From contig JAGWXQ010000001.1 in assembly GCA_018969805.1 (NCBI GenBank), positions 1 to 29,398 on the forward strand: DNA of 29,398 nt, given 5' to 3'. The notes beneath the pieces were generated by a model. The model had not been told where the DNA came from. It saw only the letters and a program-made list of their open reading frames with translations, and did not search any database. Position 1 is the stretch's first letter. Each line of letters opens with the position of its first letter. The position numbers and the translations under genes were made by a program. Positions 4,707-17,482 of the stretch are shown here, piece after piece. Source of the DNA: Paenibacillaceae bacterium (lineage in GTDB: Bacteria; Bacillota; Bacilli; Paenibacillales; YIM-B00363).

Positions 4707-5847
4707 CAAACGCCTGCATCCGTTCCATAGCGATCGTCAATTGCTGTATCGATGTCGCGTACGAGCAGCGGATGTGCCCTTCTCCCCCGATGCCAAACAC
4801 ACTTCCGGGAATGGCCGCTACTTTTCCTTCCAGCAGCAATCGTTTGGCAAACTGTTCATCGGACAAACCAAACGATGCAATTGCAGGAAACGCATAAAAC
4901 GCCCCTGTCGGTTCGTGGCACTGCATCCCCATTTGGGCAAACGACGTCAAGACGAACCGCCGTCTCTGGTTGTACGATGCTACCATGCGTGCGGTGTCTG
5001 CTCGTCCTTCGCGCAGCGACTGCACGGCTGCCCACTGGCTCGTCGTCGGGGCACACATCATCGTGTACTGGTGCACTTTGAGCATCGCCGCGATGATGTC
5101 GCGGTGTCCGCACGCGTATCCGATGCGCCAGCCGGTCATCGCAAACGCTTTTGAAAACCCGCTGACGACGACCGTCCGATCGCGCAGTTCGGGCAACGAT
5201 GCGACACTGATCGGATCGCCATTGTACGTCAGCTCTGCGTATATTTCGTCAGAGATGATGACGATGTCTTTTTGTTTGGCAAATGCAGCGATCGGCAACC
5301 ACTGCTCCCGCGTCATCGTCGCTCCGGTCGGATTGCTCGGAAAACACGCGAGCAACACTTTTGTGCGCGGGGTCACAGCGCGCTCCAGTGCTTCGACGGT
5401 AAGTACAAACCCATGTTCTGCCGTCGAAACCGGTATCGGTGTCGCACCACACAGCGTCGTCACAGGAGCATAGCTTACGTACGTCGGCTCGGGCACGAGT
5501 ACGTCGTCCCCTTCTTGAACGAGTACGCGCAGCGCAAGGTCGATCGCTTCCGACCCACCGACGGTGACGATGACCTCGCTCGTCGGCTCGTAGTGCACGC
5601 CAAAACGATCGTGCATGTATTGTCCGATTTCTTCGCGCAATTCGATCAAGCCCGCATTTGGTGTGTACGCGAGCTTTCCACGCTCCAAAGTGTGCACCGC
5701 AGCATCGCGGACGTGCCAAGGAGCAACAAAGTCGGGTTCCCCGACTCCGAGCGATATCACGTCTTTGCTCGACTGCACGAGATCAAAAAACGCACGAATG
5801 CCCGAGGGGGGGATCGATTGTACGCGGGGTACGATATAGCGTTGCAT
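4675..5847 (-). CDS. Class I/II PLP-dependent aminotransferase (YugH-like)
   Basis: PPSGIRAFFD, VISLGVGEPDF, YTPNAGLIELR, FPSNPTGA, SDEIYAEL, GFSKAFAMTGWRIGY (PLP Lys). RBS AAAGGAG at 5854-5860 supports the ATG at 5847. Confidence 0.9.
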   Translation of the reverse strand: MQRYIVPRVQSIPPSGIRAFFDLVQSSKDVISLGVGEPDFVAPWHVRDAAVHTLERGKLAYTPNAGLIELREEIGQYMHDRFGVHYEPTSEVIVTVGGSEAIDLALRVLVQEGDDVLVPEPTYVSYAPVTTLCGATPIPVSTAEHGFVLTVEALERAVTPRTKVLLACFPSNPTGATMTREQWLPIAAFAKQKDIVIISDEIYAELTYNGDPISVASLPELRDRTVVVSGFSKAFAMTGWRIGYACGHRDIIAAMLKVHQYTMMCAPTTSQWAAVQSLREGRADTARMVASYNQRRRFVLTSFAQMGMQCHEPTGAFYAFPAIASFGLSDEQFAKRLLLEGKVAAIPGSVFGIGGEGHIRCSYATSIQQLTIAMERMQAFVTALRVEMPE

Positions 5848-5879
5848 GTCCAGCTCCTTTATTCGTTGCACATACGCAC

Positions 5880-6371
5880 TTACGGGGTGACGGACATGCG
5901 TTCGTCTTTTGTGCGTTGCTCAAAAATAATGCCGTCTTGCTTATATTTTTTGAGTACAAAAAACGTCTTCGTCGAGAGCACACGCTCGATCGTGGACAGC
6001 TTACTCGATACAAACGTAGCGATATCCCGCAAATTTGCTCCTTCTACTTCTACGAGCAAATCGTACGCCCCAGACATCAAGTACACACTGCGTACTTCGG
6101 GGTACAAATACATATGTTCTGCCATCGCATCGAATCCCCGCCCACGCTCCGGAGTCATCGTCACCTCAATCAGTGCGGTGACGCGCTGTGGATCAATTTT
6201 CGACCAATTGCACACGGTCGCGTACTTGACGATGACGCGATCGTCTTCCAGTGCCTGCACGGCATCACGGACGACTGCCTCATCTTCCCCGAGCAACGCC
6301 GCCAGCAGACGGATGTCGCGCCGTGCATCTTCTGTCAGCAAATCAAGAATTTGGCGCTGTAGTGGTGTCAT
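5880..6371 (-). CDS. Lrp/AsnC-family transcriptional regulator (YugG-like)
   Basis: N-terminal HTH (ILDLLTEDAR...LAALLG) and AsnC ligand domain (YLMSGAYDLLVEVEG, STKTFFVLKKYK); RBS AAGGAGG; directly upstream of the aminotransferase. Confidence 0.9.
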   Translation of the reverse strand: MTPLQRQILDLLTEDARRDIRLLAALLGEDEAVVRDAVQALEDDRVIVKYATVCNWSKIDPQRVTALIEVTMTPERGRGFDAMAEHMYLYPEVRSVYLMSGAYDLLVEVEGANLRDIATFVSSKLSTIERVLSTKTFFVLKKYKQDGIIFEQRTKDERMSVTP

Positions 6372-6392: not shown

Positions 6393-6476
6393 TTATCCTC
6401 GCGAAACAACATATGCGACCCCCGCACATAAAAACACGAAGCCGACACACGAAAGCACGATGATCAGCCGCTTCAT
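6393..6476 (-). CDS. 27-aa single-transmembrane peptide MKRLIIVLSCVGFVFLCAGVAYVVSRG
   Basis: RBS GGAGGG (6483-6488) 6 nt before ATG 6476; TAA at 6393-6395, 21 nt before the Lrp start; basic N-terminus followed by ~20 hydrophobic residues. Confidence 0.55.
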   Translation of the reverse strand: MKRLIIVLSCVGFVFLCAGVAYVVSRG

Positions 6477-13672: not shown

Positions 13673-14710
13673 TCATAATCGCATACGAAATTGTTGTAAA
13701 AAAGCGCGGTCATTTGTATAAAAATGACGGATGTCTTCGATGCCATACCGCAGCATCGCAATCCGCTCGACACCAACACCAAACGCAAACGCCCGAACAA
13801 CGGTCGGATCGTACCCGCACCGCGCGAGCACGTCCGGATGCACCATCCCTGCACCGAGCACTTCGACCCACCCGGATTGCTTGCACACGCGGCATCCTAC
13901 ACCCCCACATACCGCGCACGATATATCGACTTCGACGCTCGGCTCCGTAAACGGGAAAAAGCTCGGCCGCAAGCGCACGCGCGAATGAGATCCAAACATG
14001 GTACGCGCAAAGTGCGCCAACGTGCCCTTCAAATGCGCCATGCTCAGATGTGTATCGACGACCAAACCTTCTACTTGCATAAACTGATGCGAATGCGTCG
14101 GATCGTCGTCGTCACGGCGATACACTTTCCCGGGACAAATGATTTTGATCGGTATCGCGCCCCCACACCGCTGCATAGTCCGAATTTGTACTGGCGACGT
14201 CTGTGTGCGCAACAATGTCGTCTCGTCGATATAAAAAGAATCATGCATCGCCCGGGCAGGATGATGCTCCGGAATGTTCAACGCTTCAAAATTGTAGTAG
14301 TCCGTCTCAACTTCCGGTCCTTCTGCAACCGTATAACCCATCCCCACAAAAATATGCTCAATTTCCTCGATGACGTGCATCAATGGATGAACCGCACCCA
14401 AACGCTCCGTCCTGCCTGGAAGCGTCACATCGATCGTTTCTTCCGCGAGTTTTCGGGCAATGCCCTGCGCCACGATGTCGTCGCGCTTCGCCATGATTGC
14501 CGCTTCAAGCGCATGCTTCACATCGTTGATCTGCTTTCCGATGCGCGCACGCTGCTCTGGATGCTGCTGCGCCATCTCCCGAATCGCAAGCGTCAGTAGT
14601 CCTTTTTTTCCTAAATACCGTACGCGTACTGCGTGCAGCGACGGTTCATCTTCACAACGACGAACATCCAGCAGCGCTTCTTCACCCAATGCATCCAATC
14701 GAAAATCCAT
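13673..14710 (-). CDS. pheS: Phenylalanine--tRNA ligase alpha subunit
   Basis: [87 protein letters not shown] 14710 follows a G-rich RBS. Confidence 0.96.
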
Positions 14711-14738
14711 GCCCCCCGCCCTTCCTCTGCACATTGTT

Positions 14739-14843
14739 CATACGCATCCCCTATAAACACATATATCCAGAGGGCTGCCTTTTGCTCGATCGCAAGAGGC
14801 GTTTTTGTGAAACGGATATATGGATTGAAATACGGATGCGTAT
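14739..14843. repeat. Copy 1 of a ~100-nt structured element with terminal inverted repeats (pheS leader)
   Basis: 10-bp inverted repeat ATACGCATCC/GGATGCGTAT, nested CATATATCC/GGATATATG, inner 9-bp hairpin at 14777-14800; colinear with the copy at 16262-16360. Confidence 0.85.
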
Positions 14844-14869
14844 CCTACACAGTCATGCGATCATACAAC

Positions 14870-14908
14870 AAAAAAGCCTGCACACCGAGCACACACGCAC
14901 GGTACAGG
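14870..14908 (-). terminator. Intrinsic terminator downstream of tRNA-Gly
   Basis: Minus strand CCTGTACCG...CGGTGTGCAGG imperfect stem, then C and TTTTTT. Confidence 0.55.
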
Positions 14909-14931
14909 TCGCGTACTGCCTAGCGGGAAAA

Positions 14932-15002
14932 AGCGGGTGATGGGAATCGAACCCACGCCACCAGCTTGGGAAGCTGGAGTTCTGCCATTGAACTACACCC
15001 GC
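14932..15002 (-). tRNA. tRNA-Gly (CCC), CCA not encoded
   Basis: GCGGGTG acceptor stem, anticodon arm CCAGC-TTCCCAA-GCTGG, T-loop TTCGATT, U73 discriminator. Confidence 0.95.
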
Positions 15003-15030
15003 GCGTTTCACCTTGACGTTGATCGTACTG

Positions 15031-15059
15031 ATTATACTGTATGAGAAACACGAACGCAA
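15031..15059 (-). promoter_or_regulatory. SigA promoter of tRNA-Gly
   Basis: TTGCGT - 17 nt - TATAAT on the minus strand. Confidence 0.65.
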
Positions 15060-15114
15060 TTGACGCACGCAAAAAATTTTCCGAATACAAAAAATTGACG
15101 CGGGCAAAAACGTC

Positions 15115-15142
15115 TTGACTTTATGCTGATTCCGTTTATAAT
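15115..15142 (+). promoter_or_regulatory. SigA promoter of the 53-aa peptide gene
   Basis: TTGACT (15115-15120) - 16 nt - TATAAT (15137-15142). Confidence 0.65.
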
Positions 15143-15175
15143 AATATTACAACCTAAGATAAAGGAGAGGAGTAT

Positions 15176-15337
15176 ATGCGAAATCGGGCTTTGCGCAAGA
15201 AAGTGTTTATATTATTGATGGTCTCGTTGTTGCTGCTCTCTTTCCAATCATTACAAGGATCGCTTGCTTCCGCAGGGTCCATATCCAGCTCCTCGTCTTG
15301 GGTTGGCACAGCTTCAGTGGTTTCTTTTCTGCCATAA
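15176..15337 (+). CDS. 53-aa secreted peptide precursor of unknown function (not in the ORF track)
   Basis: MRNRALRKKVFILLMVSLLLLSFQSLQGSLASA-GSISSSSSWVGTASVVSFLP; strong RBS AAAGGAGAGGAG; basic n-region, hydrophobic h-region, A-S-A cleavage motif; terminator 3 nt after the stop. Confidence 0.72.
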   Translation: MRNRALRKKVFILLMVSLLLLSFQSLQGSLASAGSISSSSSWVGTASVVSFLP

Positions 15338-15339
15338 AT

Positions 15340-15367
15340 ACCGATCACACGTTGATCGGTTTTTTTT
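15340..15367 (+). terminator. Intrinsic terminator after the peptide gene (may also serve convergent purU)
   Basis: ACCGATCA / TGATCGGT 8-bp stem, 5-nt loop, then TTTTTTT. Confidence 0.85.
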
Positions 15368-15374
15368 CGTTCCC

Positions 15375-16247
15375 TTATCGAAAAACAACGGTTTTGTTTC
15401 CAACGACGAGCACGCGGTCATCGAGGTGCCACTGCACAGCGCGGGCGAGCACAGTGCGCTCGACGTGTTTGCCAATGCGCTTTAGTGCTTCCAAATCGTC
15501 GCGGTGGGTCACGCGTTGGACATCTTGTTCAATAATCGGCCCTTCATCAAGGACGTTGGTCACATAATGCGCCGTCGCCCCGATCATCTTCACACCACGA
15601 TCAAGCGCTTGGCGATACGGGTTGCCTCCTACGAAAGCGGGCAAAAAAGAGTGATGGATATTGATCATTTGTTGTGGATACTGCGCCACAAACGTCGGGG
15701 ATACAATTTGCATGTAGCGTGCCAATACGACGGTGTGCACGCCATGCGTTTCCAGTACCGCAAGCTGCTGTCGTTCGGCTGCTTCCTTGTCATTGATCGG
15801 GATATGCACAAACGGAATGCCCATCGGAGCGACGCAATGCCGCAACGTGTCATGGTTGCTCACGACGACCGCAATGTCCGCATCGAGGTCTCCCGCTTGC
15901 CACAGCCACAGCAACTCCAACAAACAATGGTCTTCTTTGGTTACGAATATCCCAATCCTTTTTTTCTGAGCCACAAGCGAACATTGCACATTCATATCAT
16001 ACGTTTTTGCGATGCGATCAAAACGATGGCGCATGTCCTCCAATCGGCTCGCAGCGTGCGCACATTCAAATACGATGCGCATAAAAAACTGCCCTCCAGA
16101 TGGATCAAGAGAGTACTGATCCGATTGCACAATATTCGCTCCTTCCGTCGCCAAAAATTGTGCAACGGAAGCGACGATTCCAAGCCCATCTGGGCACGTA
16201 ATGCGCAGACGCACGCGCTCCAGCGCACCAATTTCTTGCTCCCGCAT
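15375..16247 (-). CDS. purU: Formyltetrahydrofolate deformylase
   Basis: ACT domain (ITCPDGLGIVASV, FFMRIVF) and formyltransferase domain (VVSNH, VLARYMQIVS, INIHHSFLPAFVG, GVKMIGATAHYVT, DEGPIIEQDV). Confidence 0.95.
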   Translation of the reverse strand: MREQEIGALERVRLRITCPDGLGIVASVAQFLATEGANIVQSDQYSLDPSGGQFFMRIVFECAHAASRLEDMRHRFDRIAKTYDMNVQCSLVAQKKRIGIFVTKEDHCLLELLWLWQAGDLDADIAVVVSNHDTLRHCVAPMGIPFVHIPINDKEAAERQQLAVLETHGVHTVVLARYMQIVSPTFVAQYPQQMINIHHSFLPAFVGGNPYRQALDRGVKMIGATAHYVTNVLDEGPIIEQDVQRVTHRDDLEALKRIGKHVERTVLARAVQWHLDDRVLVVGNKTVVFR

Positions 16248-16261
16248 GCCCCTTATCCCCC

Positions 16262-16360
16262 CATACGCATCCCCTATCGAAACCATATAGGGCTGTCTTT
16301 TGCTTCATTACTACAGGCGGTTTTGTGAAACGGATCGATAAAGTGAAGGACGGATGCGGA
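16262..16360. repeat. Copy 2 of the ~100-nt structured element, filling the nfo-purU spacer
   Basis: CGCATCC/GGATGCG inverted ends; blocks of 16/16, 15/16, 20/21 and 9/9 identity to copy 1, with equal-length 10- and 14-nt spacers. Confidence 0.85.
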
Positions 16361-17482
16361 TCACAACCCGATTGCGCTTTGCCCACGATCCGCACCAGAT
16401 GCGAGCCAGCACACGAGCCGCTCATATCCGTCGCGCTCCGTCCATCGTTCACCGACCCCAGAAGCAGCGACGATGTCGTACAATTGTTCGAGTGGCTCTC
16501 GTGGATCCGCTTTGCGTGCCTTTGCATGTGCGCGTGCATCCCACATGCCTACGATTGAAGCGGGTGTGTAGCCAGCACGACAAAGCACGTCGTCGATCCG
16601 CTGCACGTCGTCCATAAATTGTGTCCCCATTCGTTGGGCAGTTTCGTTCATGAGCATGGCGATTTCCACGCGGTACATCGGAAACGTTTTGTCCGATCCG
16701 ATCCACGGAGTCTCCAAAATCATGGGGATGTGTTGCAACCTTTGGTCGGATGCAATGCGCGCAAGTGCGGCAAAGCCGATATACCCACTCCCCAACGGTG
16801 CATGGCGGTCTTTTTTTGCACCGCGCGGGTTTTTGCTGTCATTGAGATGGACCACCGCAAGACGATCGCACCCAATCGTCTGATCCAACTGCGCCAGTAC
16901 GCCATCCCAATCATGGACGATGTCGTATCCCGCGTCGTGCACGTGGCACGTATCCAAACAAACCGACAAACGCTGTGGATCAGGAACAAGCTCCATAATG
17001 CGCGCGATCTCCTCAAACGATCGTCCAATTTCCGTACCTTTTCCCGCCATCGTCTCTAAAGCAATCGAAACGTGCTCTGTTTCTGCGAGCACGATGTGCA
17101 GCCGCTGTGCAATGCGCGCAATGCCGGACTCCACATCGGTTTCTGTATAGGCTCCAGGATGCAGCACGATCGTATCGCATCCGAGTGCCTGCGTGCGCCG
17201 CACTTCTTCTTGCAAAAACGACACCGCCAATTGCCACACACTGTCTTTATGCGACGCAAGATTGACAATGTACGGCGCATGGACGATGGCATGTGCCATA
17301 TGGGCATCGTCCATCATTTTGCGTGCGACCACGACGTGTTGCTGCTCGATCGGTTTGCGCGTCGTATTTTGTGGGGCACCTGTGTATACCATAAACGTGC
17401 TGCTTCCGTATGAACACGCCTCCTGCACAGCACCGATCAACCCTTGGTTGCCAAACGAAACGTGCGACCCAATATAGCGCAT
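16361..17482 (-). CDS. nfo: Endonuclease IV (AP endonuclease) with C-terminal extension
   Basis: IGSHVS, VYTGAPQNTTRK, VHAPYIVNLAS, VLHPG, IALETMAGKGTEIGRSFEE, CLDTCHVHDAGYD, HLNDSKN, KDRHAPLGSG, ILETP; RBS AAGGAGG before ATG 17482. Confidence 0.93.
   Translation of the reverse strand: MRYIGSHVSFGNQGLIGAVQEACSYGSSTFMVYTGAPQNTTRKPIEQQHVVVARKMMDDAHMAHAIVHAPYIVNLASHKDSVWQLAVSFLQEEVRRTQALGCDTIVLHPGAYTETDVESGIARIAQRLHIVLAETEHVSIALETMAGKGTEIGRSFEEIARIMELVPDPQRLSVCLDTCHVHDAGYDIVHDWDGVLAQLDQTIGCDRLAVVHLNDSKNPRGAKKDRHAPLGSGYIGFAALARIASDQRLQHIPMILETPWIGSDKTFPMYRVEIAMLMNETAQRMGTQFMDDVQRIDDVLCRAGYTPASIVGMWDARAHAKARKADPREPLEQLYDIVAASGVGERWTERDGYERLVCWLASGADRGQSAIGL

Follow-up and report, generated by a model that had tools for sequence, protein, structure and literature searches.

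A small gene beside tRNA-Gly in a Paenibacillales genome that appears to be selected for its signal-peptide-like leader rather than its Ser-rich tail

Among the small proteins of Gram-positive bacteria, those that sit in the membrane and act on larger partners form an established class (PMC10730256). Two other classes of small hydrophobic or secreted products are well described: the RRNPP systems, in which a small Sec-secreted propeptide is encoded beside a 250-500-aa TPR receptor and which are recognized by five criteria (PMC10075063), and the type I toxins (PMC8309996, PMC5416894). Here we describe a 53-codon open reading frame (ORF) in the first 29,398 nucleotides of contig JAGWXQ010000001.1 (GenBank assembly GCA_018969805.1, Paenibacillaceae bacterium), a stretch referred to below as the window. 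The ORF, whose product is P0001, belongs to a plus-strand unit that runs from promoter to terminator and sits between a tRNA-Gly(ccc) gene and the 3' end of a purU-like gene (Table 1). It is a real protein-coding gene, and its leader, not its tail, is the constrained part.

Among the closest parallels are KdpF and Prli42 (PMC10730256). Like them, the small protein is under 60 amino acids long, is predicted to form one helix and has a short cytoplasmic end that carries charge, and the likeness extends to constraint concentrated in the helix and to a promoter and terminator of its own. It differs from proteins of this type in having no sequence or family relationship to them and no partner gene in cis, and in carrying a signal-peptidase-like site followed by an unconstrained Ser-rich tail that would be extracellular.

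The reality of the gene is established by an ortholog with many synonymous changes and by a transcript found in situ, which bears out a first-pass annotation of the window that had proposed a self-contained, monocistronic, protein-coding gene. The ortholog lies in G001, a sister species of the same genus as the genome of the window (G000) and the sole other species of that genus available for comparison. It has 54 codons, occupies the same position and orientation beside tRNA-Gly and stops at the same aligned position. Kept in the alignment of the two loci are the -35 box, most of the 5' untranslated region (5'UTR), the GGAGAGG core within the Shine-Dalgarno (SD) site, the start codon, the stop codon together with the sequence around it, and the terminator, which in G001 measures 14 bp and holds the same relative position. 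G001, L026 and L031 have an unchanged -35 hexamer, TTGACT, and a -10 box that reads TAAATT. Downstream of the ortholog lies a convergent metallophosphoesterase gene, not purU as in G000. Because PheS is only 62% identical between G000 and G001, the conservation of the unit does not reflect recent common ancestry. The promoter-like match taken alone is not significant, shuffled sequences giving 1.9 +/- 1.5 matches per 1.5 kb, but the unit as a whole goes beyond chance, since all of it recurs beside tRNA-Gly in a species this divergent.

Five protein variants are on record, all intact in frame and 53 or 54 aa long; the strain variants among them alter the tail (I36V and S37H in P0006, P50L in P0008). 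The gene had been described at first as missed by the ORF track. At 53 aa it does fall under the 60-aa default of the ORF list, so a length cut-off is the probable cause, but public pipelines did call it: P0006 is annotated in NCBI and in JGI/IMG, and P0008 is labelled 'hypothetical protein'. Small genes of this kind are routinely missed or mislabelled.

The DNA of the unit is present in freshwater and soil metagenomes of several studies, and the small gene is transcribed in situ, apparently more than its neighbours. In the freshwater metatranscriptome X15 (132 million letters), 69% of the unit's sampled words are found versus 12% of those of the surrounding kilobase, and one RNA contig lies on the unit (Table 1). 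Elsewhere in 14700-16000 no X15 contig of this organism was found, pheS, purU and the spacers being bare, and the tRNA pieces in X15 derive from other organisms. DNA carry-over would also cover the neighbours, so the unit is transcribed. These RNA data come from one run with unstranded contigs, and the run was found via the small gene itself.

Selection acts unevenly along the ORF. Between G000 and G001, codons 1-27 have a proportion of nonsynonymous differences (pN) of 0.13 and of synonymous differences (pS) of 0.76, with 5, 3 and 14 differences at codon positions 1, 2 and 3, so that third positions account for 14 of 22 nucleotide differences. Codons 28-53 give pN 0.57 and pS 0.56, with 17, 11 and 16 differences at the three positions, and all that is kept of them between the species is their length, the Ser run and the final Pro-TAA. 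As judged from this codon comparison, codons 1-27 are under strong purifying selection, and the supposed mature tail drifts as if neutral. The first-pass annotation had suggested a search for homologs in relatives together with a substitution-rate analysis; these yielded the one sister-species ortholog, with constraint on the leader and not on the tail.

The N-terminal 28 residues are ~72-75% identical between G000 and G001, compared with 62% for PheS of the same pair. As a control, 573 kb of G001 supplied 19 G000-G001 ortholog pairs with N-terminal hydrophobic segments. Their first 28 residues are identical at a median of 32% (mean 39%), and the rest of these proteins at a mean of 54%. The 10 pairs resembling cleaved signal peptides or lipoproteins reach 16-33%; identity of at least 75% occurs in 3 of the 19 pairs, all of them transmembrane helices of membrane proteins (79-82%). 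Pairs were sorted into 'cleaved type' and 'helix' by eye, and the median and the 3 of 19 are independent of this sorting. The contrast with the signal peptides of the same genomes is therefore established, and at ~72-75% identity the small ORF groups with retained helices and not with cleaved signal peptides. AlphaFold2 predicts a single helix over residues 2-33, with pLDDT of 80-95 across the 30 N-terminal residues; the tail is predicted to be disordered, its pLDDT staying below 50.

A signal peptide followed by a Ser-rich tail is read by default as a pheromone or as a precursor of a ribosomally synthesized and post-translationally modified peptide (RiPP). This default is testable by comparison, and here the comparison reverses it. 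For peptide mining, the lesson is that leader and core conservation should be compared with the signal peptides of the same genomes, and RNA pairing at the codon level checked, before a precursor is called.

The explanation we favour, to which we give an even chance of being right, is that this strongly transcribed gene encodes a genus-restricted single-pass membrane peptide, N-terminus inside and C-terminus outside, with a disposable disordered tail. We infer both this topology and the retention of the helix. The five positive charges of the n-region would remain cytoplasmic, residues ~10-30 would span the membrane with the conserved Q-S-x-Q near its outer end, and the ~20-aa disordered Ser-rich tail would lie outside the cell as a spacer. 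Function would reside in the basic N-terminal segment and the helix, and, in the manner of other small membrane proteins of bacteria, the peptide would act within the membrane, either binding a larger membrane protein or associating with itself. The unit is probably needed, given that a genome of 1.4 Mb retains and expresses it, so the gene is a reasonable candidate for a membrane factor specific to its lineage, in an uncultured bacterium of freshwater and soil.

In the fold computed for the predicted G000 transcript, 15150-15160 pairs with 15295-15305 and 15167-15173 with 15288-15294. Pairing of the SD with CUCCUC recurs in the G001 fold, and the helix also appears in the consensus fold. Averaged over the 7-base SD core, the pairing probability is ~0.6 in G000 (six of nine SD bases at ~1.0) and 0.9 in G001, and the whole transcripts fold with z-scores of -3.5 (G000) and -2.8 (G001). 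Against a null of synonymous recoding that keeps the protein and uses the genome's own codon usage, the duplex between 5'UTR and ORF scores -26.3 versus -18.0 +/- 3.1 in G000 (p = 0.01) and -23.0 versus -18.1 +/- 3.3 in G001 (p = 0.09). The Ser run consists mostly of UCC and UCU, two codons that jointly account for 29% of Ser codons in the genome. The conserved Ser run may thus be an RNA feature that pairs with the SD, as these folding models suggest. Folding of growing transcripts predicts an SD that stays mostly unpaired until the nascent RNA reaches ~70 nt (G000) or ~90 nt (G001) and is paired once the RNA is longer. The mRNA would take a compact, hairpin-like shape, with its 5' end and SD paired to the Ser-codon run ~120 nt downstream, a fold that would permit early translation and then limit re-initiation or stabilize the 5' end.

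Several observations weigh against a retained membrane peptide. The n-h-c layout is what textbooks give for Sec signal peptides of Bacillota, the hydrophobic core runs without interruption for only ~14-17 residues, and a Gly stands at -6. ASA↓G in G000 and VFA↓H in G001 are good sites for signal peptidase I (SPase I), SPase I genes are present, and judging by these sites the small protein may well be cleaved. The rate estimates rest on one species pair (two divergent lineages) plus near-identical strains, and the RNA support is a single unstranded contig in one run. The bases proposed to pair are invariant and so give zero covariation support, and some SD pairing is to be expected wherever an ORF codes for hydrophobic or Ser-rich protein, with codons rich in U and C; for these two reasons, the pairing of the SD with the Ser run is rated as suggestive only.

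A credible but doubtful alternative is a Sec-exported pre-peptide cleaved by SPase I. Its 20-21-aa tail would be released, whole or as a C-terminal fragment, to serve as a signal or in another extracellular role, and the rapid change in the tail would then be a species-specific 'pherotype' divergence. Both orthologs show the canonical n-h-c signal layout, and in each of them small residues occupy -3 and -1 relative to a putative cut at residue 33, much as the first-pass annotation had described for G000. SPase I is present in G000 and G001, making cleavage possible; the predicted helix stops exactly at the putative cleavage site, and the length and terminal Pro of the tail are kept. A conserved leader joined to a divergent mature part is typical of peptide-pheromone precursors, a pattern that the small ORF fits. 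It further resembles the RRNPP propeptides Phr, PapR and NprX (PMC10075063) in its Sec-like N-terminus, in a C-terminal part that differs between species and in a strong SD, and at 53 aa in G000 and 54 aa in G001 it falls within the 10-100 aa given for RRNPP propeptides.

Other evidence is less favourable. With pN close to pS, the tail is indistinguishable from one in neutral drift, and the leader is 2-4 times better conserved than the cleaved signal peptides of the same genome pair, a degree of conservation that also sets it apart from Phr, PapR and NprX. An ordinary signal peptide combines a positive n-region, an h-region and small -3/-1 residues with free sequence drift; the layout is present here, and the free drift is not. 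Three of the five RRNPP criteria of PMC10075063 fail. No receptor is encoded adjacent to the gene in either species (the first-pass annotation had seen none in the window), the neighbours being tRNA-Gly and purU in G000 and tRNA-Gly and the metallophosphoesterase gene in G001. Nor was a receptor of the TPR type found elsewhere in either genome, both ~91% complete: TPR_12 has zero matches in G000 and G001 (control positive in 14 of 14 genomes), RapH_N and Rgg_Cterm domains are likewise absent from both with positive controls, and an Opp-type binding protein was not found in G000, which is 91.5% complete.

An unlikely, more speculative version of the membrane-peptide explanation holds that what selection maintains is the helix that resembles a signal peptide: a 'leader' resident in the membrane, whose tail is dispensable and may or may not be trimmed by signal peptidase. 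The Ser-codon run would be a built-in anti-Shine-Dalgarno element that makes translation self-limiting. The gene would then be chromosomally fixed and without an antitoxin, related in its logic to type I toxins, or else an effector derived from a signal peptide, and a streamlined Paenibacillales lineage would have retained it.

It is decidedly unlikely that the product is a type-I-toxin-like membrane peptide whose mRNA, abundant and stable, masks its ribosome-binding site by folding and in this way keeps translation low as a rule. The features of the small gene do match traits of such toxins (PMC8309996, PMC5416894): it is below 60 aa and hydrophobic with a predicted transmembrane helix (residues 2-33 in the AlphaFold2 model), long-range pairing is predicted in silico to hide the 5'UTR and SD in both species, both transcripts are strongly folded, the distribution is narrow with no homologs, and a transcript is seen in situ where those of the neighbours are not. 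Small hydrophobic peptides, predicted hiding of the SD by long-range pairing and a very narrow range are shared with Hok, TxpA, BsrG and AapA1 (PMC8309996, PMC5416894, PMC6733600), and the order of short basic N-terminus, helix and outside tail is Hok-like. Unlike these toxins, the small gene has no detectable antitoxin RNA: no conserved promoter for an antisense or overlapping small RNA was found on the minus strand in either species, and in G000 there is no downstream room for a 3'-overlapping RNA, as purU ends 8 nt past the terminator. The only antisense candidate, TTGCGC-16-TATACT, is weak (8/12), specific to G000 and without an equivalent in G001, and terminator-like hairpins on the minus strand upstream are not homologous between the species; both were rejected. 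The positive charges are N-terminal and not C-terminal, and the G000 tail is uncharged. The gene is also single-copy, and a fixed syntenic position in reduced genomes of species 62% identical in PheS is unusual for toxin-antitoxin modules. Also against a toxin are strong purifying selection across this deep split, a promoter of consensus type and a strong SD that nascent RNA is predicted to leave free.

A structured regulatory RNA, possibly dual-function, in which the ORF is secondary or incidental, is very unlikely. The transcript is short (~220 nt), driven by a strong promoter, terminated and significantly structured, and nucleotides of the 5'UTR and the Ser run are conserved. However, codons 1-27 are conserved at the protein level only, with synonymous sites saturated, none of the five known variants has lost the frame or the length, and Rfam gives no match even at E <= 1.

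Least likely of all, to the point of being barely tenable, is that the gene encodes a RiPP precursor, whether lanthipeptide, thiopeptide or azoline, or that it is left over from the decay of a longer secreted protein. The tail is Ser/Thr-rich, and the only family match of the small protein is a weak one to NF033482 (thiocillin RiPP; E = 0.005), but the match reaches 17.1 bits against a cut-off of 25, has no counterpart in the ortholog and no support from Pfam, and is probably compositional; Sec-type leaders are atypical of RiPPs, and the G000 tail offers no Cys for a thioether or thiazole core. YcaO and SPASM domains are absent from G000 and G001, with positive controls; LanC and LanB gave no match, but their controls were silent as well. 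Taken together, the neutral tail, the constrained leader and the established absence of pheromone and RiPP partners (no receptor domains, no YcaO or SPASM, no Cys) do not sustain the orphan pheromone or RiPP precursor proposed at first; the domains of RRNPP regulators and YcaO enzymes, which the first-pass annotation suggested seeking genome-wide, were not found in either of the two ~91% complete genomes. As for a remnant, a reduced genome makes gene remnants plausible, but the short form is under purifying selection, and homologs continuing into a longer secreted protein, which the first-pass annotation had named as grounds for refutation and which were sought in the 12 family genomes, the 401 order genomes, the 1.84 billion representatives and the scans of genome and metagenome contigs described below, were not found. 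The remnant was rejected with reference also to the sister genus G002, where tRNA-Gly is followed by an aldo/keto reductase gene and no small ORF.

SecM, MifM and VemP share with the small protein an N-terminal signal or anchor, a short tail and a Pro just before the stop, but the small gene has no same-strand gene downstream: its stop is followed by a terminator and then by a convergent gene. Attenuation, arrest-peptide and purU-linked functions were rejected on this ground and because the downstream gene differs in G001, as were a Tat signal (the RR of G001 is RK in G000), a lipoprotein (the sole Cys, residue 23 in G001, is not conserved and there is no lipobox) and a frameshift relation between the two tails (the shared word is 7 nt, within chance).

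On the evidence of sequence searches, the small gene is restricted to one genus and constitutes a new orphan family. A word-indexed search of 5.8 billion proteins returned only the protein itself, and a profile search of 1.84 billion representative proteins returned P0001 and P0002 only, the rest being translated CRISPR repeats and one repeat protein that is unrelated. Scans of contigs from genomes and metagenomes with degenerate patterns gave no homolog, ESM Atlas no usable match, and Pfam, PHROGs and PADLOC nothing meaningful for the small protein. Six-frame searches of 12 genomes of the family and 401 genomes of the order found signal-peptide noise only, and the best match outside the genus is the signal peptide of an unrelated lipoprotein. 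In G002, pheS and tRNA-Gly are followed directly by the aldo/keto reductase gene without a small ORF between them, and the remaining family members have no tRNA at that place. Within the 1.44-Mb genome, a genome-wide scan found the unit to be the only one of its type, present in a single copy.

The host genomes are small. The G000 assembly comprises 1.44 Mb in 244 contigs and G001 1.7 Mb, both being ~91% complete (91.5% for G000), compared with 2.7-7.2 Mb for other genomes of the family. PheS of G000 is nearest to that of Paenibacillus, at ~63% identity. G000 and G001 look like a reduced-genome Paenibacillales lineage of freshwater and soil metagenomes. On L031, a G001-type contig, an incomplete gene ~2 kb past the ortholog (5277-6165, minus strand) extends beyond the locus, and its product matches the ADP-ribosylating exotoxin domain PF03496.

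Table 1. Features of the small-gene unit and its flanks (positions in the window)
Feature	Position	Strand	Remarks
tRNA-Gly(ccc)	14932-15002	minus	divergent from the small gene
18-nt direct repeat (AATTGACGC..GCAAAAA), two copies	15058-15075 and 15093-15110		between the tRNA-Gly promoter (minus strand) and the small-gene promoter
Promoter, sigma-A type, TTGACT-16-TATAAT	15115-15142	plus	11/12 consensus positions
5'UTR	15149-15175	plus	conserved between both species; predicted pairing with codons 38-44
SD AAAGGAGAGGAG	15161-15172	plus	three bases upstream of ATG
X15 RNA contig, 169 nt	15164-15332		word depth 10.7, zero mismatches
ORF, ATG to TAA, protein P0001	15176-15337	plus	53 codons + stop
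Codons 1-27	15176-15256	plus	basic n-region RNRALRKK, hydrophobic helix, Q-S-x-Q motif; constrained part
Codons 28-53	15257-15334	plus	possible SPase I site and 20-aa Ser-rich tail, Pro last; unconstrained sequence
Ser-codon run plus next codons, GCUCCUC GUCUUGGGUUG	15288-15305	plus	predicted partner of the SD and of the transcript 5' end
Intrinsic terminator	15340-15367	plus	8-bp stem (15340-15360), 5-nt loop, T tract
purU-like gene	15375-16286	minus	convergent with the small gene; stop at 15375

The promoter, SD, start, stop and terminator listed in Table 1 are found where the first-pass annotation had placed them, and the unit diverges, as stated there, from the tRNA gene on the minus strand. 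Transcription is predicted to start near 15149. Five Arg or Lys occur among residues 2-9, the h-region extends from V10 to F23 (L26), and the putative SPase I site ASA↓G falls after codon 33, between 15274 and 15275. The 20 residues past ASA include 8 Ser, 1 Thr, 1 Trp and zero Cys and are uncharged in G000, a composition noted correctly at first. The greater AT-richness reported for the unit is likewise seen, GC being 0.40-0.425 across 15000-15400 and 0.51-0.59 in the flanks.

For the terminator, the 8-bp stem and the seven T noted at first stand: the stem begins at the third base past the stop codon, and the T tract abuts the stem and runs to 15367. The fold is predicted at -10.7 kcal/mol (z = -3.1). 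The hairpin lies 15 nt from the purU stop on the opposite strand, with an A tract on the purU side (15340-15375). Given this closeness and the flanking A tract, the terminator is probably bidirectional and may end both convergent transcripts, those of the small gene and purU.

The 18-nt repeats may serve either as a shared UP-like element or as a site for a regulator, and a similar motif, CACGCAC.CAAAA, occurs twice upstream in the alignment of the sister species too (L002, ~1370-1390 and 1445-1462). A separate element of ~100 nt is present in two direct copies (14739-14844 and 16262-16362), just upstream of pheS and of purU. Its copies share a 16-nt exact block and another of 74 nt at 78% identity, and the two ends of the element are inverted repeats of each other. 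Bacillota usually carry a T-box upstream of pheS; no T-box match was found there, and the element has no Rfam match. A genome-wide scan for SD-led small membrane ORFs also picked out a second short hydrophobic ORF in the window, of 27 aa (6393-6476, minus strand), with a basic N-terminus, one helix and GGAGGG upstream.

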